Below, piece after piece: positions 26,081 to 46,353 of a stretch of 64,000 bases of DNA. Each line of letters starts with the position of its first letter. Positions within the stretch are counted from its first letter, which is position 1. Origin of the DNA: an uncultured Gammaproteobacteria bacterium. Its GTDB lineage: Bacteria > Patescibacteriota > Microgenomatia > Levybacterales > UBA12049. The notes under the pieces were generated by a model that worked only from the letters and a program-made list of their open reading frames with translations, did no database searches and was not told the DNA's origin. The DNA is taken from assembly GCA_964540055.1 (NCBI GenBank), contig CAZILC010000003.1:21599-85598 (forward strand). Direction: 5' to 3'. The translations under genes and the position numbers were made by a program.

Positions 26081-27148
26081 ATGGACATTCAAGAACTGTT
26101 ATCACTGACAATTAAAAATAAAGCATCGGATTTGCATTTGATGGTTGGCTTGCCTCCGACCTTTCGTATTGACGGCGCTCTTCGGTATCTGACAACGTAT
26201 CCTGCTCTTAAGACCGCAGATCTTGAGGCAATGATATTTTCGATTCTTACTCCCGAACAGAAAGAGTTACTGCTTACCAATAAAGAGCTTGATTTTTCAT
26301 TCGGATTCCGTGGAAAAGGTGCGACCGAGAATGGCCGGTTTCGTATTAATGCCTATTTTGAAAAAGGAACTGTTGCAGCGGCTTTGCGTTTTCTTGCACC
26401 GGGGGTTAGAACTGTTGAGGAATTAAGCCTTCCTAATGTCGTTCATGATTTTGCCAAACTCAAACAAGGATTCGTTCTTGTCACCGGTCCAACCGGTCAT
26501 GGCAAATCGAGTACGCTTGCTGCTCTGATTAATGAAATCAATTTAAATAAATCATGTCATATCCTAACTATTGAGGATCCGATTGAGTATGTGTATCCCA
26601 AAGGCAACAGCATTATCTCCCAGCGTGAAATGAGTATTGATACGCATTCATGGTCTATGGCACTTCGTTCTTCCCTTCGTGAAGATCCGGATGTTGTTCT
26701 TATCGGTGAAATGCGTGATCCTGAGACAATGCAGGCAGCAATTACCCTTGCAGAGACCGGCCATCTAGTACTTTCAACATTGCATACTAATTCTGCATCC
26801 CAAAGTATTGATCGTATTGTCGATGCGTTTTCGGCCGATCAACGGTCACAGATCCGCATACAGCTTGCCGCAACGCTTAAGGGTATTATCTCGCAACGTT
26901 TAGTTACCAAAATTGGCGGTGGTCGAATTCCGGCAGTTGAAGTATTACTCGGAACACCTGCTGTTGCAAGTAATATCCGGGATGGAAAATCACATCTGAT
27001 AGACTCGGTTATTCAAACCTCAAAAGACATGGGCATGATAACAATAGATGAATCTTTGGCAAATCTTGTTAAAGAAGGTATTATAACGATCGATGATGCC
27101 AGATCCTATGCTCTACGCATAAATGAACTTGAGAGACTGGTTGGATAA
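26081..27148 (+). CDS. pilT: Twitching-motility retraction ATPase PilT.
   Basis: GPTGHGKSSTLAALIN, TIEDPIEY, LSTLHTNSA, 355 aa; 2 bp downstream of pilB. Confidence 0.92.
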   Translation: MDIQELLSLTIKNKASDLHLMVGLPPTFRIDGALRYLTTYPALKTADLEAMIFSILTPEQKELLLTNKELDFSFGFRGKGATENGRFRINAYFEKGTVAAALRFLAPGVRTVEELSLPNVVHDFAKLKQGFVLVTGPTGHGKSSTLAALINEINLNKSCHILTIEDPIEYVYPKGNSIISQREMSIDTHSWSMALRSSLREDPDVVLIGEMRDPETMQAAITLAETGHLVLSTLHTNSASQSIDRIVDAFSADQRSQIRIQLAATLKGIISQRLVTKIGGGRIPAVEVLLGTPAVASNIRDGKSHLIDSVIQTSKDMGMITIDESLANLVKEGIITIDDARSYALRINELERLVG

Positions 27149-27262: not shown

Positions 27263-28468
27263 ATGAGACTTTATTACCGAGCGGTAACGCAAGATGGAAA
27301 AACGGTTCGTGGCTTAATTGAAGCGAAAGATGTGAGCGAAGCTGCACTCTATCTTCGACAACATCAATTTATTCCTGTTCAAATAATTGCCGAAAACAAA
27401 GCCGGTTTGACAAGATATTTATCGCTCCTCCATCGGACCAAAGCCTCAGATATTGTCTTTTTTACTCGCCAGCTGGCATCAATGATTACCTCAGGACTGA
27501 CGCTTCTGCAAGCGCTAAATGTCTTAAAAAATCAGGTCCAAAATGCAGCTTTGTCTGAAATGATTCAAGGTATTATTACTGATATTGAAGATGGAGCAAT
27601 GCTTTCAAAGGCTCTTGAAAAATATCCATCTGCATTTTCCCCGATCTATGTTGCCCTAGTCAAAACGGCAGAAGCATCAGGTCTTTTGGATAAAGTACTC
27701 ACAAGGCTTGCTGAGAATCTGGAAAAAAAGGAACAGCTAATTCGTACAATTCGAGGGGCGTTATTATATCCGATCATTGTTGTAGTCATGATGGTACTTG
27801 TCATGGTGGTTATGATGATTTATGTCGTGCCGCAATTAACTGTTCTGTATGGTAATTTGAACATGAGTCTCCCCTTACCGACTGTTATTGTCATTGCAAT
27901 GTCAAACTTTTTGACTCATTACTGGTATATCGCAATAACGTTATTTGTAATCATTTCGGTTTATCTTAAAAGCTGGCATAATAAACCATCAGGTAAAAAA
28001 ACAACCGATGCGTATGTTCTCAAGTTGCCGATTTTTGGACAATTGATTCGGGACAGTATGATGGCTGAATTCGCCAGGACGTTATCTCTTTTGATTAGTT
28101 CAGGCTCACTCGTTGTCGAATCTTTGGTAAAAAGCAGTGATGTGGTGGGAAATGTAATTTATAAAGACGCGATTGGTCTGGTCGCCAAACGGGTTGAGAA
28201 AGGCATTTCGATTGGAGATGCAATGGCTGCTTCTCCTCTATTTCCCCCGATGGTTGTTGAAATGGTGAAAATCGGTGAACAAACCGGAAAATTGGATAGT
28301 TCACTTCTTAAAGCTTCTGAATATTATGAACGTGAGGTTGAAGAAAAGGTAAAGACCATGACGACACTGATGGAGCCAATAATTATGGTTCTTCTGGCTT
28401 TAGGTGTGGGATTTTTAATTATTGCCATCATTACACCGATTTATAACCTTATTTCAAATATTAGTTAG
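27263..28468 (+). CDS. pilC: Type IV pilus inner-membrane platform protein PilC (GspF family).
   Basis: Two GspF repeats and 3 TM segments, 401 aa. Confidence 0.9.
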   Translation: MRLYYRAVTQDGKTVRGLIEAKDVSEAALYLRQHQFIPVQIIAENKAGLTRYLSLLHRTKASDIVFFTRQLASMITSGLTLLQALNVLKNQVQNAALSEMIQGIITDIEDGAMLSKALEKYPSAFSPIYVALVKTAEASGLLDKVLTRLAENLEKKEQLIRTIRGALLYPIIVVVMMVLVMVVMMIYVVPQLTVLYGNLNMSLPLPTVIVIAMSNFLTHYWYIAITLFVIISVYLKSWHNKPSGKKTTDAYVLKLPIFGQLIRDSMMAEFARTLSLLISSGSLVVESLVKSSDVVGNVIYKDAIGLVAKRVEKGISIGDAMAASPLFPPMVVEMVKIGEQTGKLDSSLLKASEYYEREVEEKVKTMTTLMEPIIMVLLALGVGFLIIAIITPIYNLISNIS

Positions 28469-28540: not shown

Positions 28541-28933
28541 CTACTGTGCGTTCTGTGCGGTTTCTCCGAGGAATTTTTTGACTTGGGAAACAAGATCTGC
28601 CGGTGTAATATCTGCTTTGATGATAAAAGCTGCTGCACCGCTACTCATGGCTTCTTTTATCAATGGATCATGATCAAGATTGGTAAGAAGAATAATGGGG
28701 CCGTTTTTTACTTGCGGTGGTGTTTTATTAAGAGTAGAAATAATTCCTAATCCATCAAGTTTGGGCATCATGATATCAAGCAGTATGATATCATAACCTC
28801 CTTGTTGCAGTTTGTTCAGTGCCTCTTCACCATTGGAAGCTGTATCAACGGTATACCCTTCATCTTTAAGAACTTCTTCATAGAGTTCTCTGATATACAT
28901 GTCATCATCGACTACTATTACTCTTTTTGCCAT
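28541..28933 (-). CDS. Orphan single-domain response regulator (CheY-like receiver only).
   Basis: VIVVDDD...DIILLDIMMPKLDG...LLTNL...K has the receiver Asp pocket, phospho-acceptor Asp and conserved Lys; 130 aa with no output domain. Confidence 0.85.
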   Translation of the reverse strand: MAKRVIVVDDDMYIRELYEEVLKDEGYTVDTASNGEEALNKLQQGGYDIILLDIMMPKLDGLGIISTLNKTPPQVKNGPIILLTNLDHDPLIKEAMSSGAAAFIIKADITPADLVSQVKKFLGETAQNAQ

Positions 28934-29029
28934 AATAAGCTGATTATTGAAGAATTAGATTGAATTGTCAATACTACTTATTTAAGTTTCGTGATTTCAC
29001 CTCACTAATGAATATCATAAGGAAATCAA

Positions 29030-29263
29030 TTGCAAAAGTTCATGGATAAGTTTACAATGCCTGGTATTATGGGAATAGAATATGAGCAACATATGCAACC
29101 GGAACTGGTGCGCTGTGCAAGTTGCGGCATAAAGTTAGTTCGACCTATGCAAATAACGTGCTCTCCAGATTGTGCCAAAAAAAGAGAAGAGACTACTATA
29201 AAACAAATTCTCAAATTGGGCTTTAGAACACGTCGATTACACATTATTACAAAATTTAAATGA
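29030..29263 (+). CDS. Small Cys4 zinc-ribbon-like protein.
   Basis: CASCGIK...CSPDC pairs; ORF track only. Confidence 0.2.
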   Translation: MQKFMDKFTMPGIMGIEYEQHMQPELVRCASCGIKLVRPMQITCSPDCAKKREETTIKQILKLGFRTRRLHIITKFK

Positions 29264-29569
29264 GAAGGTACGAAAATGCTTGCCAAGTTATAAAAGTATT
29301 TTGTAATTGGTAACCTAGACCATGATACATGGTTGAAAAAATATTATAGGTTATACTACGATGCGTATCCTATGCCTGAGCGAGGTTCACTACCAGAGGG
29401 AAAAATCAATCTTTTTGATCTTGATCCCAAAACCAGATCTTTAGAACGTGTAAGATGGGTTCGAAGTCTGAAAATTTTAAACAAATGATTGAAGTATGCA
29501 ATGTCTTAGGAGATCAAGAAAAACTCCACACCTATACGAGTTGGTTATAACCGCACTTCTTCAGTGAGT

Positions 29570-29998
29570 TTATGCTGATCTGCCGCCGGGATACTGTGGT
29601 CTGGGATTAGGTTTTGGTGGCGGATTTGTAGGTACAGGAGTTCGGCCTTTTGTATAGGTAAATATGTGCGTAATTGCCATTTGATCCGGACGGTTTGGTA
29701 CCGTATCCATAAGTGCATGTGTGAGGATTTCATCGTTTATATGATATTCTTGTGCTGCATTGTTTTTATTAGTGCTATCCACTCCTTTAGCAAACAACCG
29801 TAAAATAGCACGTCCGGTTCGTAATGTGGTTAGTACGCCAGTTTCTCCTGAGTCCTTCAAAGGATAGATTTGAATCTTTTCAGTAATAATGCGCCGCGGT
29901 GGAGTAGTATCGATCAGCATATCAAAAGTAATACCATAATCCCCATCAGCCCGCGTATTAACAATATACGGCGGATGTATCACTCGTTCTTCAATCAT
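29570..29998 (-). CDS. Hypothetical protein with a Pro-rich C-terminal tail.
   Basis: ORF track; no motifs recognised. Confidence 0.4.
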   Translation of the reverse strand: MIEERVIHPPYIVNTRADGDYGITFDMLIDTTPPRRIITEKIQIYPLKDSGETGVLTTLRTGRAILRLFAKGVDSTNKNNAAQEYHINDEILTHALMDTVPNRPDQMAITHIFTYTKGRTPVPTNPPPKPNPRPQYPGGRSA

Positions 29999-30050
29999 AG
30001 GGGTAAAGTAAGCGTATTATATACTGAAAACGCAAAAATTGGACAGAAGT

Positions 30051-31001
30051 TTAAAAATTAATCGGTCCCACGTGTGGAAAGCCCGGCGGACGATCTGGGT
30101 TGAGGGCACCTTTGGCTATACTTTCTCTGATCGCGATTGCTCGTGCATGCTTTTCAACCTGGTTTAAGCCCTCTTGTGTGACCACACGGGACTTATTTCT
30201 TGACAACCGTGCATACATCACGTCTCTTATTCGAGTAACTCTGTCTACCATCGCATCGCTTAAAAAATCCTCTTTTCGCATAAAGACAGAGACGTCATAA
30301 TCGGTAACACCAGGAACTTTATATGTTTCATCAAGCATTTGTTGGATTGCTTGAGGATCGGATACGAGCTCTTTCTCACCTGTGTTCAGTAATGTCTCCC
30401 CCCCGTACGGATGAAAGCCAAGTCTATTTACGGCAAATTTTGCGAGCGTCGGGTTTGTTGTTCCTTCAATAAGCTCCGGCATTTCTTTCACGCGGCTCCT
30501 TTTTCTATATCCTTTTATTGTTCGTATCAGATCGACACTGCCTAAAAACATTGCTTCTTGGGCATGTTCATCCTGTTTTGTACTTACTGCGAATGGCTCG
30601 AAATGTAAATCGATAAATTTATCACCCTTTTTAAGATCTACTGCATAGCTCGGGTCTTTGATATCGCTAACACGATCATTTTTGCCGGTGACATACATGC
30701 TCAGGTTCACTGCGCCGACTGTTCCAAAGGTTGCAAGTTTGTGCATTTTTCTCAGTCGGTCTAAATCAAGGGTAGATAAGACAGAATAGAGACCTTCCGG
30801 ATCATCTTTATTAACACCAAGTGAATCAAGCTCTCGCCTGAGTGTTCTTCGATTAAGTGCTAGTTGAATTTCTTTACGAATCCCGCTTTGTACCTTCAAC
30901 CTCGGCACCTCTGCCTCCGTTTTAACAACAACTTCCCCTTCTGACATCCCGGCACCTTCCACCATACTTTTTAGTGTAATAGGTTTGGAGGCATTTAACA
31001 A
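30051..31001 (-). CDS. Hypothetical protein, 316 aa.
   Basis: ORF track; Arg/Asp/Glu-rich; no motifs recognised. Confidence 0.45.
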   Translation of the reverse strand: MLNASKPITLKSMVEGAGMSEGEVVVKTEAEVPRLKVQSGIRKEIQLALNRRTLRRELDSLGVNKDDPEGLYSVLSTLDLDRLRKMHKLATFGTVGAVNLSMYVTGKNDRVSDIKDPSYAVDLKKGDKFIDLHFEPFAVSTKQDEHAQEAMFLGSVDLIRTIKGYRKRSRVKEMPELIEGTTNPTLAKFAVNRLGFHPYGGETLLNTGEKELVSDPQAIQQMLDETYKVPGVTDYDVSVFMRKEDFLSDAMVDRVTRIRDVMYARLSRNKSRVVTQEGLNQVEKHARAIAIRESIAKGALNPDRPPGFPHVGPINF

Positions 31002-31041
31002 TCTGTGGAGTGGTTTACAGTTCCAACTAAGTACCTGTTAA

Positions 31042-31070
31042 CCACAAAAAAGCTCCCGTTCGGGAGCTCT
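31042..31070 (-). terminator. Rho-independent terminator downstream of the cold-shock gene.
   Basis: Perfect hairpin GAGCTCCCG-TTCG-CGGGAGCTC at 31051-31069, followed on the minus strand by TTTTTTGTGG. Confidence 0.6.
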
Positions 31071-31089
31071 TTGTAGACACGGAAATGTC

Positions 31090-31287
31090 TTATTCCCGTG
31101 TAATGTTTTTGGCACTTGGGCCACGATCTCCGTTGACTACTTCAAAAGTGACGGTGTCACCGGTTTGTAGTTCATCAAAGGTTACACCTTTTAAATCATT
31201 AGCATGAAAAAAGAGGTCTTTTGATTCGCCTTCTCGGCTGATGAATCCAAACCCTTTATCCATTTTAGTTTTAATAGTTCCTTTCAT
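31090..31287 (-). CDS. cspA: Cold-shock protein (CspA family, cold-shock domain).
   Basis: KGTIKTKMDKGFGFISREG...DLFFHANDL are the RNP1/RNP2 motifs; 65 aa. Confidence 0.92.
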   Translation of the reverse strand: MKGTIKTKMDKGFGFISREGESKDLFFHANDLKGVTFDELQTGDTVTFEVVNGDRGPSAKNITRE

Positions 31288-31564
31288 AGAAATGTCTCTC
31301 CTTTCTTAGAACGATTATACCAAAAAAATTACAAAAGATGAATGAACCTTGTTACTTTGGTATATGCTTTTAAATATTATTTACATCTCACCTTTTTGTG
31401 ACACTTTTCTATTACACTATTTTTTTATTGCATATATAATATAATAACTATAAAATGCGCGGAATCTATCCTGCTTGACAATTACTACAGGATGTAATAT
31501 ACTTGAGTTTCATAATTTATTTACTAGTTTCTCTGGCTGCGATTAGTTAATAAATACCAAAAAC
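31288..31564. promoter_or_regulatory. AT-rich divergent intergenic region: the csp promoter with a long 5' leader, and the promoter for the 31565 gene.
   Basis: 277 bp at about 25% GC between divergent genes. Csp genes classically have long structured 5' UTRs. Confidence 0.3.
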
Positions 31565-33385
31565 ATGGCATTAAAAGAACACAGTCAAGTTCCTTCTGGT
31601 ATGTCACTTTCTCCAGAAAGTGGTACCGGTGGTCGTCGCAATCGCGGACGTCATAGACGCTCGGGTAGTTTCGTTCCTAATTTAAGGTTATTTCAAAGAT
31701 CTGAGCATAAAATTACCGGTCAAACAGATACTCCCAAACCTCCAAAGTATAATATACTTAACGTAACAAGCTTGTTTGATGCTAATGTTGCGGGCGGAGC
31801 TGTTCCGACTATTGCATCTGCAGAAATATCACAGAGTCCTGATTCTCAAAAACCGCAACATGATTCTTTAGAAACATTGTTAGCATCTTCACCGCAAGAT
31901 AGATATCGTGCTTTTGCTGAACATCCGCAAAGACTTCATTTTTTCCTTTCTGCTGTTGTCCCAAGATTACTTGATATGACTGAGGAAAATCAAGCTGGAC
32001 ATACTTCTGGAGATAAATGGAAATATTTTGCGGGTTTGACTGAAGCATATTCTATAGTTGAAGCAATTCCAGATCTTGATGGAAGGTTAGATGCTGTTGC
32101 TCAATCTAACAGAGCAAATGGTGAGCAGCTTTGGCTTATTGAAGATGCAATGCCTTCAATTGAGGAAGATAAAAGAAGAATCTTTGCTGAAACTGAAGAT
32201 TTTGGTGCACAGGAAATGCAGCCTCTTATAAGTCAATCAAAAAGAGCTGTTGAAGACCAATTAGGACAACTTAATATTAGACTTGAAGTAGAAAAACAGG
32301 CACCGCCATCCCCTCTCGTAAAAGATCTCGCTCAAATGAATGCTATGATTCAAATATTTAGAGCAGATGGTTTTGAACATGTTACAGATCATCGAGAATT
32401 AGCAGAACTACAGCAGGATACAGATTCTACTACAAATTCTAAAAAAAGAATTCGAAGAAAAGAAAAGAAAGAAATTATTAATCGGCATATTGATGGATTA
32501 TTGAGTGCATATGTTGTTTCAACCGGTAAAGTAGCCGAAGATGATATAGAAGTTTTGCCATACTATCGAGAACGATTTACTCAATTGCAAACAAAAATTG
32601 AAGCTAGTAATGTACATCTTGAAGAAGAATTACCTGATTATACGCGTGCTCAACAGATCCGGGAGATTATTACAGCAGTAAATAATTTTGACAGATTTAC
32701 AAAAACAGCAACCATTGAAAAAGAATCCGGTATAACAGAAGCCGTAAAAAGGGATTCAAATAGTGCTAGAAAGAGAGAAAATGCAATAAGTTGGGGTTAT
32801 GCAGGAGCAGTTGAACTTCCTCAGGTTGCTAGTGGTTGGGTAGGAGGAAGTGTTGTGCATATCACAGGAGTACGTGATTTATTAGCTCTTGGTATCATTG
32901 CAGGAAGTACAAGACTTGCTTCTTTGGGTATTCTTGCTTTAAAAGGAATACAAAATGAAGGTCTGGTTACTAAAACTGGTGTTGCAACGGATCCGGGTTC
33001 AAAGTGGTCAAAGGAACATCTGGGTAAGGCTTGGCCGGGATTTGTGGCATTTAATGGCGTTATTGAATTGCTTTTCCTTGGAGATGCAGCTTTAGGACTT
33101 CCCGGGCTGGGTATGGCTGGGGCTCTTGCTATCGAAGCTTCTACTAATTTGTCACCTTGGGGCTTACCCAGACAAATACTAGAAGTGACGGGTATCAAAA
33201 AAGTGAAAGATCGAAAAAAGAAGGAAAAAGTTGGAGACCATATAGTGTCATTTAATTTGCCTGCAATTCAAAGAAACGATTCAGATCCTACTATGACTGA
33301 GATACCAGATCAAAGCGATCCCCCTTTACCCAATTCAATAGTTATGCAACCGGGTGAAGAAGTAAGATTATTGGAACCGGTTTAA
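31565..33385 (+). CDS. Hypothetical 606-aa protein with an Arg-rich N-terminus and a C-terminal Gly-zipper-like hydrophobic region.
   Basis: N-terminal GGRRNRGRHRRSGSF. The C-terminus carries GxxxG-rich amphipathic segments (ALGIIAGSTRLASLGILALKG, LGLPGLGMAGALAIEAS). Confidence 0.5.
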   Translation: MALKEHSQVPSGMSLSPESGTGGRRNRGRHRRSGSFVPNLRLFQRSEHKITGQTDTPKPPKYNILNVTSLFDANVAGGAVPTIASAEISQSPDSQKPQHDSLETLLASSPQDRYRAFAEHPQRLHFFLSAVVPRLLDMTEENQAGHTSGDKWKYFAGLTEAYSIVEAIPDLDGRLDAVAQSNRANGEQLWLIEDAMPSIEEDKRRIFAETEDFGAQEMQPLISQSKRAVEDQLGQLNIRLEVEKQAPPSPLVKDLAQMNAMIQIFRADGFEHVTDHRELAELQQDTDSTTNSKKRIRRKEKKEIINRHIDGLLSAYVVSTGKVAEDDIEVLPYYRERFTQLQTKIEASNVHLEEELPDYTRAQQIREIITAVNNFDRFTKTATIEKESGITEAVKRDSNSARKRENAISWGYAGAVELPQVASGWVGGSVVHITGVRDLLALGIIAGSTRLASLGILALKGIQNEGLVTKTGVATDPGSKWSKEHLGKAWPGFVAFNGVIELLFLGDAALGLPGLGMAGALAIEASTNLSPWGLPRQILEVTGIKKVKDRKKKEKVGDHIVSFNLPAIQRNDSDPTMTEIPDQSDPPLPNSIVMQPGEEVRLLEPV

Positions 33386-33572
33386 GGTCGGGTTTTTGTC
33401 AAGTTTCTTGATAAGATTAAATATAAGATACCAAAGAACTTTAGGAAATTATTATTAGATACTATATAATTCCTCATATGGTGGCATAAAGTACTTTTAG
33501 TGAGCTTATTCAAATTCATTTATAGAACGACCAGATTGACTTTCTTTTAGACTTATAGTATAATAATTATTT

Positions 33573-34568
33573 ATGGCACCTGAAATTCGTAAACCAAGTA
33601 GTCGATTCAGAGCTTTTAGAATTTCTGGCTCACGAGGGCCAGATGCTTCTAGTGGTCCTAACAATTTTCCGCTTGCTGCAGAAACTTCAAGCGACGGCAA
33701 TGCTGCTGGTCATCGAAGACGTCCCTTTGCAACTTTAGCAGAAGGTTTACAAGTGCCAATATTTCATAGAAGTAGTTTCCGTCCCCTTCGTGGCTCAAGA
33801 AGAGAAAGTGATCCATCGAAAGACAAAGTACAACAGCTTCGATTAAAGGATGGAAGAAGTGTAGAAGCAGAAGCTGTTATTGAAGGCAGAATCTGGAGAG
33901 TAGATCTACGACAACTTCTCGCTGATAAAAACCCGGATTGGCAGGCTGAAGTAACACGAGTTGCACAAGAAGCCCCAGACGTGTCTTTTCGTGGCGGGGA
34001 TGTCGGAACTTCTGCTGAAGCAGCTGATTTTGTAACGCAATATCAACCAACCACTGGTGATGTAATTGCCGAAAGATTACCCTGGTACCTCGAGCTGGTT
34101 CAGAACGAATTCACTGAAGTAGGAAAAATGTTAAGTGGAGACCCGTCATTACATCTAGGAGATGATTTGGAACATTCCTTAAATTTCAACTATACGCGTG
34201 GTCGAAGACCAGGTGAAAAAACGGGACGTAGGTATGAAAAACATAAGGATCGTAATCCATGGACTATGCTGACCGCGATACTTACTGTCAAGGAAGGTTT
34301 AGGTGGTAAAACCAATTTCTTTAAAACTGTTAAATCCCGTATAACAGGTAAAGAAAGATATAAGACAATAGCTTCATTGCGACCTGAAGCAGGATATGGT
34401 GTCTTCTTTAACGGTCATACAGTTCATAGTGTAGAAGAATACCTAGGAATGGAAGATGTTCACGGTCCACGACTTGTTAATCCAGCTGATATGTATACAG
34501 ACGCTATTCCACAAACAGTAGATAAAGGATTTAATAATACTATCTTGAAACCCCAAGATGGTAAGTAA
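33573..34568 (+). CDS. Hypothetical 331-aa protein with an Arg-rich N-terminus.
   Basis: N-terminal RKPSSRFRAFRISGSRGPD...GHRRRPF; no motifs recognised. Confidence 0.5.
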   Translation: MAPEIRKPSSRFRAFRISGSRGPDASSGPNNFPLAAETSSDGNAAGHRRRPFATLAEGLQVPIFHRSSFRPLRGSRRESDPSKDKVQQLRLKDGRSVEAEAVIEGRIWRVDLRQLLADKNPDWQAEVTRVAQEAPDVSFRGGDVGTSAEAADFVTQYQPTTGDVIAERLPWYLELVQNEFTEVGKMLSGDPSLHLGDDLEHSLNFNYTRGRRPGEKTGRRYEKHKDRNPWTMLTAILTVKEGLGGKTNFFKTVKSRITGKERYKTIASLRPEAGYGVFFNGHTVHSVEEYLGMEDVHGPRLVNPADMYTDAIPQTVDKGFNNTILKPQDGK

Positions 34569-34572
34569 ACAC

Positions 34573-34601
34573 TTGACAAACAGTTCTGAATTGGTAATCA
34601 T
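34573..34601 (+). promoter_or_regulatory. Putative sigma70-type promoter of the first solute-binding-protein gene.
   Basis: Perfect -35 TTGACA (34573-34578), then 17 nt, then TAATCA. The second copy has TTGACA at 37491-37496, then 17 nt, then GATTAT. Confidence 0.3.
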
Positions 34602-34629
34602 GAATATACTATAGTATTTTCATAATTCC

Positions 34630-35544
34630 ATGGAAGAACAAGCAACATCATCCCCTTCCGTAACTCCACCACCTGATACTAGTGCTCAGGAACCTGCTCA
34701 ATCTCATTCGCCTACTCCCCCATCTCAATCAGCTCCCAAACATTCTAAAAATCGTTTTATTTGGATCTTTGTCCTTATTGTATTTTTCTTAGGCTTTCTT
34801 GCAGTTGCAGCCTGGTATTTCCAGAATCAACTTCAGAAAACCGCGTTGGAAAATAAGCCGACAACTGAAGCTCCTGCAGCGATGTCTCCAAAAGAATTGA
34901 TAATCGGTACCGATCCAACATTACCTCCTATGGAATTTCTTCAGAATGGTAAATTTGTCGGATATGATATCGATTTGGCGAACTTGCTGGCCAAACAAAT
35001 GGGCGTAAAAGTCGAATTCAAAAATGTAGTTTTCGACAATATCTTCAGCGCTCTTCAGGATCATCAGATCGACCTTATCGTCTCAGCTGTTACCATAACG
35101 CCAGACAGACAGGCAAAATATGATTTTTCGGAGCAATATCTTAATGCAGGACAAGTAATTATTACAAGAAAAGACAATACAACAATTACCAGCGTTAAAG
35201 ATCTTCAGGGAAAGAAAATTGGTGTCCAAAAAGGAACTACCAATGAAACCCAAGCACTTAAGTATACTTCCTCAACATTAGTTATTCGATATCCAGATTT
35301 TGTCCAGGCAACAAAAGCGCTTGTGAATGGTCAGGTCGATGCCATATTTGATGATTTACCAAGCTCCAAAGGAATCACGCAAGACAATCCAACACTTAAG
35401 ATCGCGAGTGATCCATTTACCGATGAATATTATGGTATTGTTTTTAGAAAAGGCGATCCGGAAGTCAAAGAAGTAAATAAAGCACTTGATGCACTCCGTG
35501 TACGAGGCTATCTCACAGAATTAAAGAATAAATGGCTTGATTAA
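34630..35544 (+). CDS. Membrane-anchored family-3 solute-binding protein (polar amino-acid type), copy 1.
   Basis: P/S/T-rich N-terminus plus a TM anchor, then an SBP_bac_3 fold (GTDPTLPPMEF...GYDIDLANLLAK...LIVSAVTITPDRQ...GVQKGTT). No ABC permease or ATPase genes are adjacent. Confidence 0.8.
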   Translation: MEEQATSSPSVTPPPDTSAQEPAQSHSPTPPSQSAPKHSKNRFIWIFVLIVFFLGFLAVAAWYFQNQLQKTALENKPTTEAPAAMSPKELIIGTDPTLPPMEFLQNGKFVGYDIDLANLLAKQMGVKVEFKNVVFDNIFSALQDHQIDLIVSAVTITPDRQAKYDFSEQYLNAGQVIITRKDNTTITSVKDLQGKKIGVQKGTTNETQALKYTSSTLVIRYPDFVQATKALVNGQVDAIFDDLPSSKGITQDNPTLKIASDPFTDEYYGIVFRKGDPEVKEVNKALDALRVRGYLTELKNKWLD

Positions 35545-35562
35545 AGTCGCTTGTAAAAATGA

Positions 35563-37464
35563 ATGAAATTTTCAATCCGAACTAAACTGCTCATTGGGTT
35601 CGCAACCCTTCTCGTCTTATCTATAATCTTTCAAGTATTTACTTTTGCAATTATTAATCAATATGTTTCTTCTCAAATTACCACATTGCAGGAAGTTGAA
35701 GCCAATAACGGGGCAACTGATATATTAAATTTTTTTACAAAACTTAACAATGAAAGTCTCGGGCTTGCAATAGGATATAGTCAGGGTCTTGAACAGTTTG
35801 AAACAGTTGCAAAAATTACCCTTAAAAAAAATAATTATATTACAAAAATTACTATCCTCTCCCCTCTCGGTCATGAATTAGTTGGTTTTGATGCAAACGG
35901 CAAGATTTTACAAGACAAACTTTCATATGAAGTATTTACCTCACCATTCAAAACGGCGGTTTCCGGGACCCCAACAATTTCGCAAGTGTATTATTTGCCA
36001 AATGATCCGGGCCCGCTTATTGATACGTTTTATCCGATTTTTGATGCTCGGCACATGGTTATCGGTGTCGTTAAAATGCGGGTAAATTTGGACCAATTGC
36101 GAAGTGAACTCGCCCATATTCGTTTGGGTCATAACGGGTATATTTATGTTGTTGATAGTAATGGGCTTCTTATTTCGCACCCATCTCAAGCGTATGTACT
36201 GCAAAGACCGATTCTCTCAAACCGCAATGTCATTGCTGATGCGTTATCTAATTCATCTCCCACCTTTAGGGCAGAAGAATACACCAATGAACAGAATACA
36301 TCAGTTATTGCAAAAGCCATCAAAATTTCAGATTATAATTGGGTTGCGGTTTTTGAACAACCTACCTCTGAAGCATTTAGTTTCTTAACTCTCATTAGGA
36401 ATTTCTTTTTGATTACTTTTGGAATTTCTACATTTTTCCTGATATTGATTGCGCTTTATTTGAGTGAAAATTTGAGTCGCCCAATTAGAAAATTACAGCA
36501 CTCAGCAGAGCAGGTAGAAAGCGGCCTCATGCAAAAAATACTTATCATTAGAAGTGGTGATGAAATTGAATCATTATCGCATTCTTTCGCTTCACTCATT
36601 GACCAACTACTTGAAAGAGAGCATCTTTTGGAGAAAATTTCCACGCAATTGCGAGATGCAAACGAAAAATTAAAAGCTCTAGACAAGCTCAAAAATGAAT
36701 TCGTGTCTGTCGCTTCTCATGAACTTCGTACGCCAATGACTGCTATCAAATCCTATCTCTGGCTTGCATTGGAAGGGAAAGGCGGTAAGCTTAATGATAA
36801 ACAACAATATTATATTTCACGCGGATATAGTTCAGTTGATAGATTAATCAGGCTTGTAAATGATATGCTCAATATCTCACGTATCGAATCAGGTCGTATC
36901 TCAATAGTTTTTGCCTCAACCGATCTCATCAAATTAGTACAGGAAGTAATTGATGAAGTGCTTCCTCGCGCAAAGGAATTAGAAATTGCAGTTGAAGTCC
37001 ATAAACCATCCCAGCTGCCACACGTTCTCGCCGATCCGGATAAAATAAAAGAGGTACTTATCAATCTTATTGGAAACTCACTCAAATTTACTCCCAAAGA
37101 AGGCAAAATTACGATTGATTTTGTCAAAAAAGGTGCATTTGTCCAGACGCGGGTTAAAGATACAGGTGCGGGTATTACGGCTGAGGACAAAGATAAGCTT
37201 TTTCAGAAATTCGGACTCCTTCCTGGATCATATATTACCAATCAAACGAGTACCCATCTGGGGACAGGACTGGGATTGTATATCTGCCGTGCGATTATTG
37301 ATCTGCATCATGGAGAAATCAAGGCGGAATCAGAAGGTCGCAGCAAAGGTTCAACGTTTTCTTTCACTCTCAAGGAATTTAATGAATCGGATTTCCAGAC
37401 GCTTAAGAAACAAAATAATGAAGAGGATAAAGACTCGATGGAATTGATACACGCAAATATTTAA
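35563..37464 (+). CDS. Sensor histidine kinase with a periplasmic Cache-like domain, copy 1.
   Basis: TM1 at about aa 8-30, a roughly 250-aa extracytoplasmic domain, TM2, a HAMP-like linker, the HisKA H-box SHELRTPMTAIKSY and HATPase_c boxes (LIGNSLKFT, DTGAGI, GTGLGL). Confidence 0.9.
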   Translation: MKFSIRTKLLIGFATLLVLSIIFQVFTFAIINQYVSSQITTLQEVEANNGATDILNFFTKLNNESLGLAIGYSQGLEQFETVAKITLKKNNYITKITILSPLGHELVGFDANGKILQDKLSYEVFTSPFKTAVSGTPTISQVYYLPNDPGPLIDTFYPIFDARHMVIGVVKMRVNLDQLRSELAHIRLGHNGYIYVVDSNGLLISHPSQAYVLQRPILSNRNVIADALSNSSPTFRAEEYTNEQNTSVIAKAIKISDYNWVAVFEQPTSEAFSFLTLIRNFFLITFGISTFFLILIALYLSENLSRPIRKLQHSAEQVESGLMQKILIIRSGDEIESLSHSFASLIDQLLEREHLLEKISTQLRDANEKLKALDKLKNEFVSVASHELRTPMTAIKSYLWLALEGKGGKLNDKQQYYISRGYSSVDRLIRLVNDMLNISRIESGRISIVFASTDLIKLVQEVIDEVLPRAKELEIAVEVHKPSQLPHVLADPDKIKEVLINLIGNSLKFTPKEGKITIDFVKKGAFVQTRVKDTGAGITAEDKDKLFQKFGLLPGSYITNQTSTHLGTGLGLYICRAIIDLHHGEIKAESEGRSKGSTFSFTLKEFNESDFQTLKKQNNEEDKDSMELIHANI

Positions 37465-37544
37465 TGTTTTTTGTAATAATGACTCTTGTATTGACAAAAA
37501 AATGTGAATAATCGATTATTAAGATAGAGTTATTTTTTTATACT

Positions 37545-38534
37545 ATGGATCAGCAAAATCAATCATCACCACCGCAAAATCCACCTCAAGATTCCAGTAT
37601 GCCGTCAAATCAACCAGCTACGCCTGTTCCTCCTCCTCCATCTCCTACTCCAGGAATGCCAACTGATCCATCTTCATCCTCTCCAACGCCTACCCCTGCT
37701 TCTTCTGTGCCCCCAGCTATACCACCAAAACATTCAGGAAGCAAATTACCTTGGATAATTTTGCTCATTATCTTATTTATCGGTTTTCTCGGTCTTGCGA
37801 CGTGGTACTTTCATTCACAATTACAAAATCTAGTAGGACCAACGCCAACACCCTCGCAATCTGCGGCAAACACACAATCAAAAACACTTGTTATAGGAAC
37901 TGACCCTACTTTTCAGCCAATGGAGTACAAACAAGATGGGAAAGTGGTTGGATATGATATTGATCTGGCTAATTTGATTGCAAAGCAACTTGGAGATAAA
38001 GTTACTTTTAAAAATATCACGTTTGACAATCTCTTTACCGCGCTGCAGCAGCATCAAATTGATATGATTATATCTGCCGTAACAATTACACCAGAAAGGC
38101 AGAAAAAGTATGCTTTCTCCAAAGAATATCTCAATGCAGGACAAGTAATTATTACCCAGCAAGCAAATACTGTCATTAAATCCCCGACTGATCTCAAAGG
38201 TAAAAAAATTGGTGTGCAGCAAGGAACGACTGATGAGTCCGAAGCGCTTAAATATACTGACGCCAATCTTGTGATCAAATATCCGGATTTTGTTCAGGCA
38301 ACAAAGGCCTTGGTTAGCGGAACTGTTGATGCGATCATAACAGATTTACCCAGTGCACAAGGAATTGTTGGTACAAATCCTACACTTAAAATTGCAAGTG
38401 ATCCATTTACCAATGATTATTATGGCATTGTGTTTAGAAAGGGAGATCCTGAGGTTGAACAAGTCAACAAAGCTCTTGATTCACTCAGTGTTAGAGGCTA
38501 CCTGACAGAACTCAAGCATAAATGGTTAGATTAA
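37545..38534 (+). CDS. Family-3 solute-binding protein, copy 2 (paralog of 34630..35544).
   Basis: Roughly 70% aa identity to copy 1 across the SBP fold, with the same anchor architecture. Confidence 0.8.
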   Translation: MDQQNQSSPPQNPPQDSSMPSNQPATPVPPPPSPTPGMPTDPSSSSPTPTPASSVPPAIPPKHSGSKLPWIILLIILFIGFLGLATWYFHSQLQNLVGPTPTPSQSAANTQSKTLVIGTDPTFQPMEYKQDGKVVGYDIDLANLIAKQLGDKVTFKNITFDNLFTALQQHQIDMIISAVTITPERQKKYAFSKEYLNAGQVIITQQANTVIKSPTDLKGKKIGVQQGTTDESEALKYTDANLVIKYPDFVQATKALVSGTVDAIITDLPSAQGIVGTNPTLKIASDPFTNDYYGIVFRKGDPEVEQVNKALDSLSVRGYLTELKHKWLD

Positions 38535-38552
38535 AGCAACATTGAAAAATGA

Positions 38553-40433
38553 ATGAAACTCTCAATCCGTCGTAAACTACTTATTGGTTTTACCCTCCTG
38601 TTAATACTTGCTTTTCTTATCCAGGGTTTTTCGTTTGTGATTGTCCAACAATATATTTCCGCAAAAATTACCGCGCTTCAAGAGGTTGAGGCACAGGACG
38701 GTGCAAATACAATTTTGAATTTTTTTACCCAAATGAATGCAAGAAGTTCCGGGCTCGCTCAAACCTACTATCAGGATCCAAAAAATTTTGTAACTATAGC
38801 CCAATATATACTTAAAAATAACCAATTTATTAACGAAATAACCATTTTGTCACTTGTGGGGCATGAATATGTGCAAGTAGATCATAAAGGTCCAGTCCCA
38901 CCAGGGAAACTTACGTATGAGGTCTATTCTGATCCTTTTAAATTAGCTGTTGCGGGAACTCCGGCAATCTCACAAGTTTATTATCTCGGGAAGAATTCTG
39001 ATCCCTATATTGATACCTTTTATCCGATTCTTGCAAAAAGACACACAGTGATCGGGGTAATTAAAATGCAAGTTAATTTAAATCAACTTCGGAGCGATCT
39101 GTCGCATATCCGCCTTGGCAACAATGGGTATATTTATGTTGTTGATAAATATGGTGTGCTTATTTCTCATCCCTCACAATCCTACGTGCTGGACAGACCA
39201 GTTCTCACAAACCGAAAAATCATAAAAAATGCGCTCAATAGGAGATCTTCTACTTTTCATGATGAACAATATGTTAATGAGAAAAATGTGCAAGTAGTTG
39301 CGAAAGCTATGCGGATTTCAGATTATAATTGGGTTGTTGTGTTTGAACAGCCGACTTCGGAGGCATTTAGTTTTCTTGATTTTATCCGGAATTTATTTTA
39401 CGTAACAGTTGGTGTTTCATTCCTTTTTCTCTTACTGATTTCACTATTTTTGAGTGAAAATCTTACCCGGTCAATTAGAATTTTACAACGTTCTGCCGAG
39501 CAAATCGAACGCGGACAAAAGATTACTTTTACTCCTATCAAAACTGGTGATGAAATAGAATCGTTATCACGCTCCTTTTCATCTCTCGTTGATCGATTAT
39601 TGCAACGCGAACATTTATTGGAGCAGATTTCTTCACAAATTAAATATACCAATGAAAAATTACAAATCATGGATAAGCTCAAAACCGAATTCGTTTCTGT
39701 TGCATCACACGAGCTTCGTACGCCAATGACAGCTATTAAATCGTATCTCTGGATGGCTCTTAAGGGTAAAGGAGGCGAACTCAATGAAAGGCAAAAGTAT
39801 TACATTGAACGAAGTTATAATTCAGTCGATAGATTGGTTCGTTTAGTTAATGATATGTTGGATATTTCCCGAATTGAATCAGGACATTTTAAGCTTGAAC
39901 TTGCGAATGTTGATATTGCAATCTTAGTTCATGAAGTTGTAGAAGAGCTGTTACCACGAGCAAGTGAATTGGGTATTACTATCACTGTTCAGGATCAAAA
40001 TACAGCGCTTAATGTCCTTGCTGATCCGGATAAAATCAAAGAAGTTTTGTTTAACTTATTTGGTAATGCGCTTAAATTTACACCACGAAGCGGAAATATT
40101 TCCGTTAAATTTGCTCAAAAAGGTGAATTTATCGAAACAAAAATCAAAGATACCGGCGCCGGTATTGCTCCTGACGATATGAGCAAACTATTTCAAAAAT
40201 TTGGCCTTATGCCAGGCTCTTATATTACCAATCAAAATTCATCCAATGGAACGGGACTCGGATTATATATCTGTCGCTCAATTATCGATTTGCATCAGGG
40301 AACAATTCGGGCAGATTCACCGGGAGTCGGTAAAGGCGCAACTGTCACCTTTACACTCAAAGTCTTTCATGAAGCAGAATTAGAAATTGTTAAAAAGCAA
40401 CAAATGGAAGATAAAAAATTACTTGGACTGTAA
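38553..40433 (+). CDS. Cache-type sensor histidine kinase, copy 2 (paralog of 35563..37464).
   Basis: Same architecture, with H-box SHELRTPMTAIKSY and roughly 60% aa identity to copy 1. Confidence 0.9.
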   Translation: MKLSIRRKLLIGFTLLLILAFLIQGFSFVIVQQYISAKITALQEVEAQDGANTILNFFTQMNARSSGLAQTYYQDPKNFVTIAQYILKNNQFINEITILSLVGHEYVQVDHKGPVPPGKLTYEVYSDPFKLAVAGTPAISQVYYLGKNSDPYIDTFYPILAKRHTVIGVIKMQVNLNQLRSDLSHIRLGNNGYIYVVDKYGVLISHPSQSYVLDRPVLTNRKIIKNALNRRSSTFHDEQYVNEKNVQVVAKAMRISDYNWVVVFEQPTSEAFSFLDFIRNLFYVTVGVSFLFLLLISLFLSENLTRSIRILQRSAEQIERGQKITFTPIKTGDEIESLSRSFSSLVDRLLQREHLLEQISSQIKYTNEKLQIMDKLKTEFVSVASHELRTPMTAIKSYLWMALKGKGGELNERQKYYIERSYNSVDRLVRLVNDMLDISRIESGHFKLELANVDIAILVHEVVEELLPRASELGITITVQDQNTALNVLADPDKIKEVLFNLFGNALKFTPRSGNISVKFAQKGEFIETKIKDTGAGIAPDDMSKLFQKFGLMPGSYITNQNSSNGTGLGLYICRSIIDLHQGTIRADSPGVGKGATVTFTLKVFHEAELEIVKKQQMEDKKLLGL

Positions 40434-40447
40434 TATAATTAAAGAAC

Positions 40448-41287
40448 ATGGTATTTTATATTTATTTTCTTATTTTTATTCTGGGTGCAGCTATTGGGAG
40501 TTTTTTGGGAGTCGTTGTAGACAGACTTGCCAGCAAAGAATCTTTCTGGATGGGCAGGTCGCATTGTGACCATTGCAGACATAAATTGCAGCCGTTGGAT
40601 CTTATACCAATTTTGTCATTCTTTCTTTTACATCGTAAATGTCGGTATTGTCATAAAGAACTCAGTTTGTTTTATCCTTTTATTGAACTGCTTTCAGGTT
40701 TTTTTATTCTTCTCAGTTGCTGGGTTATATTTCAAGATTCGATTATGGCATTTTCGCAATTGTCATTGCAATTATTGGCGCTCTACTATTGTTCACTTAT
40801 CGCTTCATTGCTGGTAATATTTTTCGCTGATCTCAAATATGGCATTATTCCCTTCAAAATAGTACTTTTTTCTTTCTTACTGACGCTTATCTGGCAAATT
40901 TTGCTTCCTCATTTGGGTTTTAGTTTGTTGGCAGTGCAATTTTTGGGATTACAGACAAATCTTCTGTCAATTGTGCTTTCTGCAATTGGTGCAGGCGGAT
41001 TTTTCTTTTTAATATTTCTTTTTACCAAAGGTCGTGGGATGGGTTTTGGCGATGTTGTATATGCTTTCTTGATGGGTTTTATTTTAGGGTATCCGACGGT
41101 TATTGTCGGACTATACTTCGCTTTTGTGACAGGTGCTGTTGTTTCTCTTTTATTAGTATTTTTCAAAAAGAAAAAATTCAGAGGGGGTACTATTCCGTTT
41201 GGTCCGTTTTTAGTTCTTGGCACTATTTTAAGTTTGTTATATGGAGCACAAATGATAGATTCTGCCCTACGATTGCTGGGGATTTAA
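40448..41287 (+). CDS. pilD: Prepilin peptidase PilD (A24 family) with an N-terminal zinc-binding CxxC-x21-CxxC.
   Basis: CDHCRHKL...CRYCHKEL, then 6-8 TM with conserved Asp residues; 279 aa. Confidence 0.85.
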   Translation: MVFYIYFLIFILGAAIGSFLGVVVDRLASKESFWMGRSHCDHCRHKLQPLDLIPILSFFLLHRKCRYCHKELSLFYPFIELLSGFFILLSCWVIFQDSIMAFSQLSLQLLALYYCSLIASLLVIFFADLKYGIIPFKIVLFSFLLTLIWQILLPHLGFSLLAVQFLGLQTNLLSIVLSAIGAGGFFFLIFLFTKGRGMGFGDVVYAFLMGFILGYPTVIVGLYFAFVTGAVVSLLLVFFKKKKFRGGTIPFGPFLVLGTILSLLYGAQMIDSALRLLGI

Positions 41288-41330
41288 GATTTGATTTGCA
41301 GGAAGTACCATAAGTAGTAATAATAAAAGT

Positions 41331-41840
41331 ATGAAAAGAAATTCAGGTTTTACTCTGATTGAAATGATTGTTGTCATAGCTCTGTTGGGAATTATTTCAA
41401 CAGCCATTCTTGCGACAATTGATCCATTCGGACAGCTGCAGAAATCAAACGATACACGACGTAAGGCAGATCTGGAGTCTATTCAACATGCTCTTGAGTT
41501 ATATTACCAAGACAATGATAAATATCCGGATTCGAGCGCTGATTTTCAAATTTTGAATGGAGCTACGACTGTTGCCTGGGGAAGTTCATGGCAGCCTTAT
41601 ATGGCAACACTTCCCAAAGATCCATCCCTTTCCAGCTCGTATGTTTATTACTCGCCTTCAACTGCTAATGGACAAACGTATTATCTTTATGCCAATCTAC
41701 AAAGGGGCAGTAAAGATCCCCAAGCGTGTAATAAAGGAAATGCATGCGCAAGTATTGGAAGCGCGTCAGGATTTCCAGCAGCGAATGCGTGTGGTGGAAC
41801 ATGTAATTACGGGGTATCAAGTACTAATGTTTCACCGTAA
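41331..41840 (+). CDS. Type IV pilin (likely the major pilin) with a prepilin N-terminal cleavage/methylation motif.
   Basis: MKRNSGFTLIEMIVVIALLGIIS is the class III signal peptide G/FTLIE; the C-terminus is Cys-containing. Confidence 0.75.
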   Translation: MKRNSGFTLIEMIVVIALLGIISTAILATIDPFGQLQKSNDTRRKADLESIQHALELYYQDNDKYPDSSADFQILNGATTVAWGSSWQPYMATLPKDPSLSSSYVYYSPSTANGQTYYLYANLQRGSKDPQACNKGNACASIGSASGFPAANACGGTCNYGVSSTNVSP

Positions 41841-41858
41841 TTAGTAGTTTGCGAAAAT

Positions 41859-42814: not shown

Positions 42815-42850
42815 GTTGAAATATTTGAATTTAACGGTGATAATAGAAGT

Positions 42851-43851: not shown

Positions 43852-43935
43852 AAAATATCCTCACACACCGTTGACACTATCTTAGCAAGTTGTTACGATG
43901 ATTATGGAGTAGTCTGCACTGCAGAGTATTTTAAG

Positions 43936-44757: not shown

Positions 44758-44760
44758 TAT

Positions 44761-45798: not shown

Positions 45799-45812
45799 TC
45801 CGTTTACATACT

Positions 45813-46352: not shown

Positions 46353-46353
46353 T

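Follow-up and report, generated by a model that had tools for sequence, protein, structure and literature searches.

A putative solute-binding protein and dCache kinase unit, present twice between pilC and pilD, suggests a sensory relay at a type IV pilus locus of an uncultivated bacterium

The sensors with dCache-like domains that depend on a solute-binding protein (SBP) have been reviewed and include LuxPQ, HptAS, and CBP/ChiS (PMC8050422). In LuxP/LuxQ of Vibrio and HptA/HptS of Staphylococcus aureus, a dedicated SBP gene neighbors that of a kinase whose extracytoplasmic sensor consists of two alpha/beta modules; the pair comes without transporter genes, and the sensor domain does not itself serve as the main binding site for the ligand (PMC8050422). 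Proteins of the SBP_bac_3 family serve as receptors for membrane sensors in ScrB/ScrC of Vibrio parahaemolyticus and in GlnH/GlnX/PknG of Mycobacterium; the ScrC sensor is dCache-like, and the mycobacterial GlnH binds Asp or Glu (PMC8050422). The pairing of an SBP_bac_3 protein with a dCache histidine kinase is not among the characterised systems in that review (PMC8050422). Here we describe such a pairing, present in two copies between the pilC and pilD genes of a type IV pilus locus. The DNA analysed is a 64-kb stretch of contig CAZILC010000003.1 (assembly GCA_964540055.1, positions 21,599 to 85,598), hereafter the window, from an uncultured bacterium placed in the Levybacterales of the Patescibacteriota. 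With moderate confidence, we read the two units as a three-component sensory relay tied to the type IV pilus genes, in which a co-sensor in the style of LuxP/LuxQ would feed RR130, a stand-alone receiver encoded next to pilC. The features concerned are collected in Table 1.

The locus resembles LuxP/LuxQ and HptA/HptS in its dedicated SBP gene, its two-module sensor kinase, the absence of transporter genes, and a sensor domain that does not appear to be the primary ligand binder. It differs from them in that the SBP belongs to SBP_bac_3 and is held by a transmembrane (TM) segment with a Pro-rich tail, whereas the SBPs of LuxPQ and HptAS are of the Peripla_BP_4 or SBP_bac_1-like kinds, and in that the predicted output is a stand-alone receiver at a pilus locus rather than the LuxU/LuxO relay or HptR. 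The use of an SBP_bac_3 protein as the receptor for a membrane sensor is shared with ScrB/ScrC and GlnH/GlnX/PknG, but ScrC has a GGDEF/EAL enzyme as its output and GlnX a Ser/Thr kinase, where the present locus has a histidine kinase and a stand-alone receiver. The kinases BvgS and EvgS receive extracytoplasmic input through fused Venus-flytrap (SBP_bac_3) domains, whereas here SBP and kinase are two polypeptides, the latter with a dCache domain of its own.

Two-component genes among pil genes have a precedent in PilS/PilR of Pseudomonas, Myxococcus, and Geobacter, where both the kinase and the regulator are encoded there. PilS, however, has six TM segments and senses pilin in the membrane, unlike the two-TM kinases with SBP and dCache sensor found here, and PilR is a sigma-54 enhancer-binding regulator of the NtrC type, whereas RR130 consists of a receiver without an output domain. 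RR130 resembles PilG/PilH of the Pil-Chp system (PMC12632253) and cyanobacterial PixG/PixH, small receivers that either work on the pilus motor or serve as a sink; like PilG/PilH, it is a lone receiver domain whose phosphorylation site is intact. Those receivers are fed by CheA-type kinases in chemosensory arrays, whereas the kinases here are of the class I HisKA type, and CheA, CheW, and MCP domains were absent from the window and from the contexts of RR130 homologues. No feature that defines PilS/PilR or Pil-Chp (ChpA, PilI, PilJ) was found at the locus. Class I kinases each paired with a stand-alone receiver are represented by HK853/RR468 and ThkA/TrrA of Thermotoga maritima; unlike the present system, these pairs have no SBP co-sensor, dCache domain, or pilus context. 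Each element of the locus has a precedent in these systems. Literature searches found no publication on two-component control of pili in bacteria of the candidate phyla radiation.

Table 1 Features of the pilus locus and of the region between pilC and pilD (window coordinates)
Feature	Position	Strand	Assignment and remarks
pilB	24339-26078	+	Pfam T2SSE and MshEN
pilT	26081-27148	+	Pfam T2SSE
pilC	27263-28468	+	Pfam T2SSF
RR130	28541-28933	-	Stand-alone CheY-like receiver, 130 aa; Response_reg only, 1.2e-26
Doubtful 86-aa ORF	29026-29286	-	
u142	29570-29998	-	No Pfam, NCBIfam, or PHROGs match
u316	30051-31001	-	No Pfam, NCBIfam, or PHROGs match
u606	31565-33385	+	No family match; two moderately hydrophobic C-terminal segments
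u331	33573-34568	+	2-Oxoglutarate (2OG)-Fe(II) oxygenase candidate (prolyl-4-hydroxylase-like); directly upstream of SBP1
Promoter-like site 5' of SBP1	34573-34601	+	TTGACA, 17 nt, AATCAT; 10/12; consensus match only
SBP1	34630-35544	+	SBP_bac_3, 1.2e-40; TM at residues 39-66; Pro/Ser/Thr-rich N-terminal tail
HK1	35563-37464	+	TM, dCache_1, TM, HAMP, HisKA, HATPase_c
Promoter-like site 5' of SBP2	37491-37519	+	TTGACA, 17 nt, GATTAT; 10/12; consensus match only
SBP2	37545-38534	+	SBP_bac_3, 2e-39; paralogue of SBP1
HK2	38553-40433	+	Paralogue of HK1; 14 nt upstream of pilD
pilD	40448-41287	+	Pfam; directly downstream of HK2
Pilin and minor-pilin genes (four or five pilin-like)	41331-43851	+	Pfam
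p273, pilM (44761-45798), pilN, pilO	Assembly block ends at 47103	+	Pfam

The gap between pilC and pilD measures 11,979 bases and holds ten open reading frames (ORFs). The initial annotation had placed in it two units, each of an SBP_bac_3 gene followed by a dCache kinase gene, together with a receiver, and ORF calling and Pfam searches confirmed these; four further ORFs, amounting to about 5 kb, had been overlooked. The SBP and kinase genes are separated by 18 nt in both units, and the paralogues are 67% (SBPs) and 62% (kinases) identical. The SBPs scored 138.8 and 134.8 bits against SBP_bac_3 (PF00497; cut-off 26.4). By hydropathy, each has a single TM segment, and each kinase has two (around residues 7-35 and 275-305) that enclose a Cache region of about 240 aa, so that the membrane anchor of the SBP and the extracytoplasmic position of the Cache domain, both proposed earlier, were borne out. 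Profile searches likewise supported the kinase architecture that had been proposed for dCache_1 (55.9 and 59.1 bits for HK1 and HK2; gathering cut-off 45), HisKA (68-75 bits), and HATPase_c (85-86 bits), while HAMP was borderline, with one copy just above the cut-off of 25 (26.0 bits) and the other just below it (24.5 bits); the homologue in related locus L009 reached 43 bits. The H-box of the kinases reads SHELRTP. An AlphaFold model of HK2, built with 12 family sequences, placed two alpha/beta modules on a long stalk helix, with predicted local distance difference test (pLDDT) values of about 75-90 for the sensor. When the full model was searched with Foldseek, kinase cores dominated the matches, with ZraS and then HK853 as the closest structures, and nothing specific emerged on a likeness of the sensor to LuxQ or HptS. 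Among NCBIfam-type models, the kinase core scored best with WalK, PhoR, and PnpS, and no NCBIfam equivalog was reached by SBP, kinase, or receiver.

Transporter genes were sought around the SBPs. We scanned 63 window ORFs, comprising nearly all those of at least 120 aa that lie outside longer ORFs, and found no ABC permease or ATPase; no transporter genes were present in any related SBP-kinase locus either, as the initial annotation had stated for the surroundings of the SBPs.

A low-complexity tail of 35-130 aa, rich in Pro, Ser, and Thr, precedes the TM segment in five of six family SBPs, that is, in all those with a visible N-terminus; the sixth, in L007, is cut at the start of its contig. 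In the window, the tails are encoded at 34630-34760 and 37545-37740, and the same region carries them in the SBPs of L001, L003, and L009. Judging from the positive-inside rule, this tail probably lies in the cytoplasm, an arrangement that would be unusual for a binding protein.

The SBPs retain the features expected of receptors for amino-acid-like ligands. Their closest sequences in the PDB are AncQR (2.6e-49), then ArtJ and GlnH, and the best NCBIfam match is TIGR01096 (7e-51; 173 bits, under the cut-off of 256); scores against the transport equivalogs ArgT, ArtJ, GlnH, and HisJ were far under their cut-offs. In structures of GlnBP, LAO, and HisJ, the alpha-carboxylate and alpha-amino groups of the ligand are bound by the Arg of TIT..R, a Thr or Ser of the same strand, the Asp of DA..xD, and an N-terminal Asp. 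An alignment of AncQR (4zv1) with six family members showed that the TD, SAVTIT..R, GTT, and DAI.xD positions are kept. Four pocket-lining positions (L/F, K/Q, N/D, and D/T) distinguish SBP1 from SBP2, and because of these differences the two proteins probably sense different ligands, which fits the earlier suggestion that duplication widened the ligand range. Between HK1 and HK2, divergence is strongest in the distal Cache module, which is 54% identical as compared to 76% for DHp, the dimerization and histidine phosphotransfer domain; this pattern, too, would agree with ligand pairs that have diverged.

The Cache domains present the opposite picture. Amino-acid-binding dCache domains carry the motif YxxxxRxWY...Y...D, represented in PctA by Y121, R126, W128, Y144, and D173 (PMC8915833). 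This motif is missing in all 14 family kinases with a readable distal Cache module; R126 is replaced by S, D, T, E, or M, W128 by F, and D173 by R or Q. Given the conserved pairing, the retained SBP backbone residues, and the lost Cache motif, the pattern points to a sensor that, like LuxP/LuxQ or HptA/HptS, depends on an SBP, rather than to a transport SBP beside an unrelated kinase, with the contact between the two proteins predicted from these features. The kinase of L001 (P0002, 1439-3223; GCA_009772715.1) has a distal Cache module short by about 39 residues (...SDPF|AVKMQVNL...), with the rest intact; either an assembly problem or a dispensable distal pocket could account for the gap.

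The SBP-kinase pair proved to be a conserved unit. A word-indexed search with the sensor half of HK2 returned 17 relatives, a lower bound, as HK1 and the kinase of the P0087 locus are not among them. A scan of a genome collection with the sensor-domain alignment gave three close loci, and the other 36 loci served as a negative control. The SBP gene stands immediately 5' of the kinase gene in all nine close units whose upstream side is visible (two in the window and one each in L001, L002, L003, L004, L007, L009, and the P0087 locus), whereas no SBP match was found beside any of the distant dCache homologues from other phyla (0 of 36 loci). The order of the two genes and their short spacing are kept across kinases that are as little as 50-55% identical.

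The position of the unit next to pilD is conserved as well. The order SBP, kinase, pilD is found in three related genomes. In L001, the sequence SBP, kinase, pilD, pilins, pilM...trmD follows the gene order of the window, and pilD lies 3' of the kinase in the window, L001, L002, and the P0087 locus, with a pilin gene in its place in L007. Loci L002 and L046 stem from the same nanopore sample, and one contig ends and the other starts inside an HK1-like gene; when joined, they read pilBTC, receiver, unknown genes, u606-like, u331-like, SBP1, HK1, SBP2, HK2, and pilD. On the P0087 locus, a single contig carries holB / pilB-pilT-pilC, a convergent receiver gene, a 582-aa gene, a 259-aa gene, one SBP, one kinase, pilD, and the pilins. 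This is a one-unit version of the block, and its kinase and pilD genes overlap by 4 nt. In L003, pilus genes lie 4-8 kb upstream. We conclude from these arrangements that the two units of the window arose by an old tandem duplication of a single SBP-kinase unit that stood directly upstream of pilD. In a neighbor-joining tree, the L002 kinase groups with HK2 and the L001 kinase, weakly, with HK1, and the doubling therefore predates the split of at least two genomes. The tandem duplication proposed in the initial annotation is upheld in the two paralogous units, with the qualification that it is old and common to the L046/L002 genome, while the description of the units as inserted into the pilus locus is contradicted by the conserved synteny and by the single-unit block of the P0087 contig. 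A recent insertion or mobile element was considered and rejected, as synteny is kept and neither integrase nor phage matches were found.

The pilC-side neighbor of this region, RR130, has the catalytic residues of a receiver in place: the acidic pocket D9/D10, D53, T84, and K106. It is convergent with pilC, from which it is separated by 72 nt. It was confirmed, as initially described, to be a single-domain receiver without a DNA-binding output, and it is the only receiver among the 63 window ORFs scanned. It reached no named NCBIfam family, and its best solved relatives by sequence are the stand-alone receivers TrrA and RR468, followed by CheY. Homologues number 373 at E<=1e-20; the 120 listed are 63-87% identical, and one is labelled Candidatus Levyibacteriota. 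The sensor of the kinases is far less conserved. The receiver gene adjoins pilC in seven of eight contexts (the window, L046, L047/L048, L049/L050, L051, the P0087 locus, and L132) and lies 7 kb away in the eighth, L131; in L049, L131, and L132 it holds its position with no SBP-kinase pair nearby. The order holB / pilB-pilT-pilC followed by a convergent receiver is kept in L046, L047/L048, L049, the P0087 locus, and L132, and L051 shows only pilC and the receiver. RR130 had been called an orphan regulator, which does not describe a member of a large, highly conserved family standing beside pilC even where the SBP-kinase pair is missing.

In a metagenome scan based on the receiver alignment, matches to the generic LLD[IV]MMPK motif predominated, and only L051-L054 were close loci. 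The scan also brought to light pilus clusters with stand-alone receivers in more distant lineages. In the distant lineages L058, L061, and L064, stand-alone receivers 35-43% identical to RR130 occur inside pilB/C/M/N/O clusters (L058 8831-10372; L064 5450-10384; L061 162-506), with PilB about 43-44% identical. These receivers adjoin a PilX_N-like gene or pilN/O/M, and a seven-TM kinase lies 3 kb away in L064.

Links between the kinases and receivers of this subfamily were found in several relatives. In L003, a 2OG-oxygenase-like gene, SBP, kinase, and receiver are consecutive, and in L008 the order is kinase, FIST, receiver. The receivers of these two loci are 45-50% identical to RR130 and share with it the PP..NG..LTNL and IIKsd.TP marks, while a more distant stand-alone receiver, 31% identical to RR130, follows a sortase gene in L009. 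In all three loci, the sole receiver beside the kinase is of the stand-alone type. The FIST gene (L008 2140-3753) and the sortase gene (L009 12725-13714) lie between dCache kinase and receiver, and the L008 and L009 kinases have an extra PAS domain.

The DHp helices of HK1 and HK2 are also 82-94% identical to those of two kinases encoded near RR130 orthologues, a GAF kinase in L046 (4709-6217(-), 3 kb from the receiver) and a kinase in L049 (1-1512(-), 8.5 kb from the receiver), both with sensors unrelated to those of HK1 and HK2. The L051 kinase (about 6051-7025(-)) has the same arrangement, with a core about 60% identical overall. Because kinases with unrelated sensors share one DHp, these data suggest that several kinases converge on one common receiver partner, and RR130 probably takes input from several kinases having this DHp. 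A further link lies in the nearest solved proteins, as HK853 (after ZraS) for the HK2 core and TrrA and RR468 for RR130 come from the ThkA/TrrA and HK853/RR468 pairs, in each of which the partner of the kinase is a stand-alone receiver.

The considerations above lead us to the following model for the relay. The tethered SBP_bac_3 protein would bind an extracellular ligand resembling an alpha-amino acid and would then dock on the kinase whose gene lies 18 nt downstream, contacting its extracytoplasmic dCache domain and following the logic of LuxP/LuxQ and HptA/HptS, and docking would alter autophosphorylation of the kinase. HK1 and HK2 would phosphorylate RR130, and other kinases of the lineage that have GAF-type or other sensors and a near-identical DHp probably do so too. 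Since RR130 lacks an output domain, it would most likely either act protein-to-protein on PilB, PilT, PilC, or PilM or drain phosphate as a sink, and the extension and retraction of pili would be tuned as a result. The closest documented precedent for either action is PixG/PixH, as phosphorylated CheY-like PixG binds PilB1 and PixH is a phosphate sink (PMC11181946). What the analysis establishes is gene content, domain architecture, synteny, conservation, and the state of the motifs, whereas we infer that SBP and kinase touch, what kind of ligand is bound, that phosphate passes to RR130, and that pili respond; the sensing relay that had been proposed at the pilus locus is favored to the extent of a strict SBP-kinase unit, retained SBP backbone residues, recurrence by pilus genes, and receivers of the same subfamily.

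If the model holds, the SBP_bac_3 and dCache kinase pair would join the short list of SBP-dependent sensor kinases, and one pilus-associated receiver would be suggested to integrate several kinases with a common DHp. These uncultivated bacteria with small genomes have type IV pili and no chemotaxis genes in the regions seen, and the locus offers a testable candidate pathway in which the ligand-binding protein is defined and is joined by two kinases and by a receiver that lies beside pilC in many genomes.

Several observations weigh against the relay as drawn. In the window, RR130 and SBP1 are encoded on different strands at a distance of 5.7 kb, and the four genes that separate them are unrelated. 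Because RR130 is far more widespread than the SBP-kinase pair and keeps its place without it, the pair would be at most one accessory input. The receivers beside the kinases of L003, L008, and L009 could be paralogues of RR130, no pilus genes are in view around the SBP-kinase pairs of L004 and L009, and a large share of the synteny was seen in genomes so closely related that they do not count as independent samples. The proposed contact of SBP and Cache domain is drawn from comparative genomics, and the genome was examined over 64 kb, so a DNA-binding regulator may lie elsewhere. Such a regulator, for example one of the OmpR type acting on the pilD-pilin operon or on unrelated genes, would be served by HK1 and HK2 in an alternative that we consider unlikely, under which RR130 is served by other kinases and the proximity is a by-product of adjoining pilus sub-clusters. 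The partners of WalK, PhoR, and PnpS, whose models gave the best scores with this HisKA/EnvZ-type core, are of the OmpR type, and the loci in which RR130 stands without the pair (L049, L131, L132) agree with this alternative, as does the limited extent of genome examined. The 14-nt gap between HK2 and pilD contains no terminator-like site, and the two genes are therefore probably co-transcribed, an arrangement that would suit a transcriptional feedback loop. No DNA-binding receiver was found, however, in the window or beside any close kinase homologue; the kinases of L003, L008, and L009 have only stand-alone receivers beside them, and the DHp of HK1 and HK2 is shared with kinases near RR130 orthologues.

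A role of the SBPs in uptake for an unlinked amino-acid ABC importer, with the dCache domain sensing another ligand of its own and the kinase pathway regulating SBP expression, appears very unlikely to us. The similarity of the SBPs to ArtJ, GlnH, and the Lys/Arg/Orn family would agree with such a role, many SBPs perform both transport and signalling (PMC8050422), and the two modules of the Cache region are well formed in the model and could accommodate a ligand. Yet permease and ATPase genes are missing from the 64 kb and from the related loci, the order and spacing of SBP and kinase are strict across kinases 50-55% identical whereas an SBP is absent from the distant dCache loci, SBP and kinase were duplicated jointly, the amino-acid motif is missing from the Cache domain, and the L001 kinase is short of about 39 residues of the distal module. 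It is also distinctly unlikely, in our view, that the relay is real with RR130 serving as a phosphate sink or phosphate-passing intermediate, so that pili would be controlled indirectly or not at all. PixH is an example of a single-domain receiver that acts as a sink (PMC11181946), and several kinases seem to converge on RR130, but no second receiver or Hpt protein was found among the window ORFs, and the adjacency to pilC in seven of eight contexts, together with 63-87% conservation, suggests a conserved partner in the pilus machinery. Were these alternatives true, the locus would be an ordinary two-component system between two pilus sub-clusters. The three-component relay that acts on the pilus through RR130 is the reading we prefer.

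The remaining ORFs between pilC and pilD were examined in related loci. For u142 and u316, tblastn gave no match there; at their position, L046 has other unknown genes and the GAF kinase, and this part of the block is variable. The u606 family comprises 13 representative clusters among 1.84 billion proteins, with homologues in place in L046 (27% identity) and, weakly, in L047. At the position of u606, the P0087 locus has its 582-aa gene, and a representative homologue, P0149, is of equal length. A sequence search of the PDB with u606 gave no significant match.

The assignment of u331 as an oxygenase candidate comes from its homologues. The protein itself is below the Pfam threshold, and a homologue search returned u331 alone. 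Homologues directly upstream of the SBP in L046 (1253-2125(-); 35% identity) and in L003 (8134-9048; 33% identity) match PF13640 at 1.1e-5 and at 1.2e-8 (36.2 bits; cut-off 27), respectively, and H224-x-D226, H285, and R300 are invariant across the three proteins. A profile search of the PDB placed prolyl-4-hydroxylases first, weakly (E 0.13), while a plain sequence search of the PDB gave nothing significant. Among the four unknown ORFs, u331 alone had a match in PHROGs, a weak one to phrog_274 (E 0.0006). A single-sequence AF2 model of its core had a pLDDT of 33 and was unusable. A candidate oxygenase gene is found 5' of the SBP in three genomes (the window, L046, and L003), whose kinases are 51-80% identical, and the 259-aa gene upstream of the SBP in the P0087 locus is probably the counterpart of u331. 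GC content at third codon positions is 0.20 for u606 and 0.24 for u331, versus 0.29-0.39 for the other genes sampled. Both proteins are Arg-rich.

A broader interpretation, doubtful as it is, would treat the whole block of pilBTC, receiver, membrane-associated u606, u331, tethered SBP, dCache kinase, and pilD as a hitherto undescribed CheA-independent tactic or host-sensing system, in which amino acids outside the cell, such as those that a host cell releases, would act through the SBP, the dCache kinase, and a motor-binding receiver on pilus extension and retraction. The u606 and u331 proteins would then be added lineage-specific components, and one possibility within this interpretation is an oxygen- or 2OG-dependent modification of the Pro-rich cytoplasmic SBP tails.

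Promoter-like sequences precede both SBP genes, as initially reported, and the -10 element of each matches the consensus in four of six positions. The shared TTGACA had been taken as a sign of inheritance from one ancestral unit, which we rejected: the upstream regions share little else, and equal or better matches stand before unrelated genes, including 5' of RR130, u606, and u331. In total, 61 promoter-like matches were counted versus 46.5 +/- 5.2 in shuffles, a modest excess. The intergenic RNA fold between pilC and the receiver gene was no better than shuffles.

The window is chromosomal and low in GC (about 0.40). It contains gyrB/gyrA, holB, trmD, recG, and pheST in addition to a complete type IV pilus set, as well as PMT_2 and dockerin genes; a sortase is present in one relative. 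Such a content is typical of small genomes and, like the receiver homologue labelled Candidatus Levyibacteriota, hints at a Microgenomates-type bacterium of the candidate phyla radiation. No tRNA genes, and no Rfam families at gathering score, were found across the 64 kb. The pilus genes are split into two blocks, pilB-pilT-pilC and pilD-pilins-pilM-pilN-pilO, the second of which (40448-47103) is syntenic with L001 and L002. In L047 (6042-6582; also in L048), a toxin-antitoxin pair of the BrnT/CopG type lies between pilB and holB and has no equivalent in the window. Elsewhere in the window, a 971-aa ORF at 1633-4548(-) has a weak GntR-like match at its N-terminus and nothing else, and a 369-aa protein (20332-21441(-)) has a dockerin type I domain at its C-terminus. 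Two PAP2 phosphatase paralogues stand in tandem at 14670-15443 and 15379-16140. Next to them come two YegS/diacylglycerol-kinase-like paralogues in convergent orientation, at 16144-17130 (+) and 17127-18044 (-).

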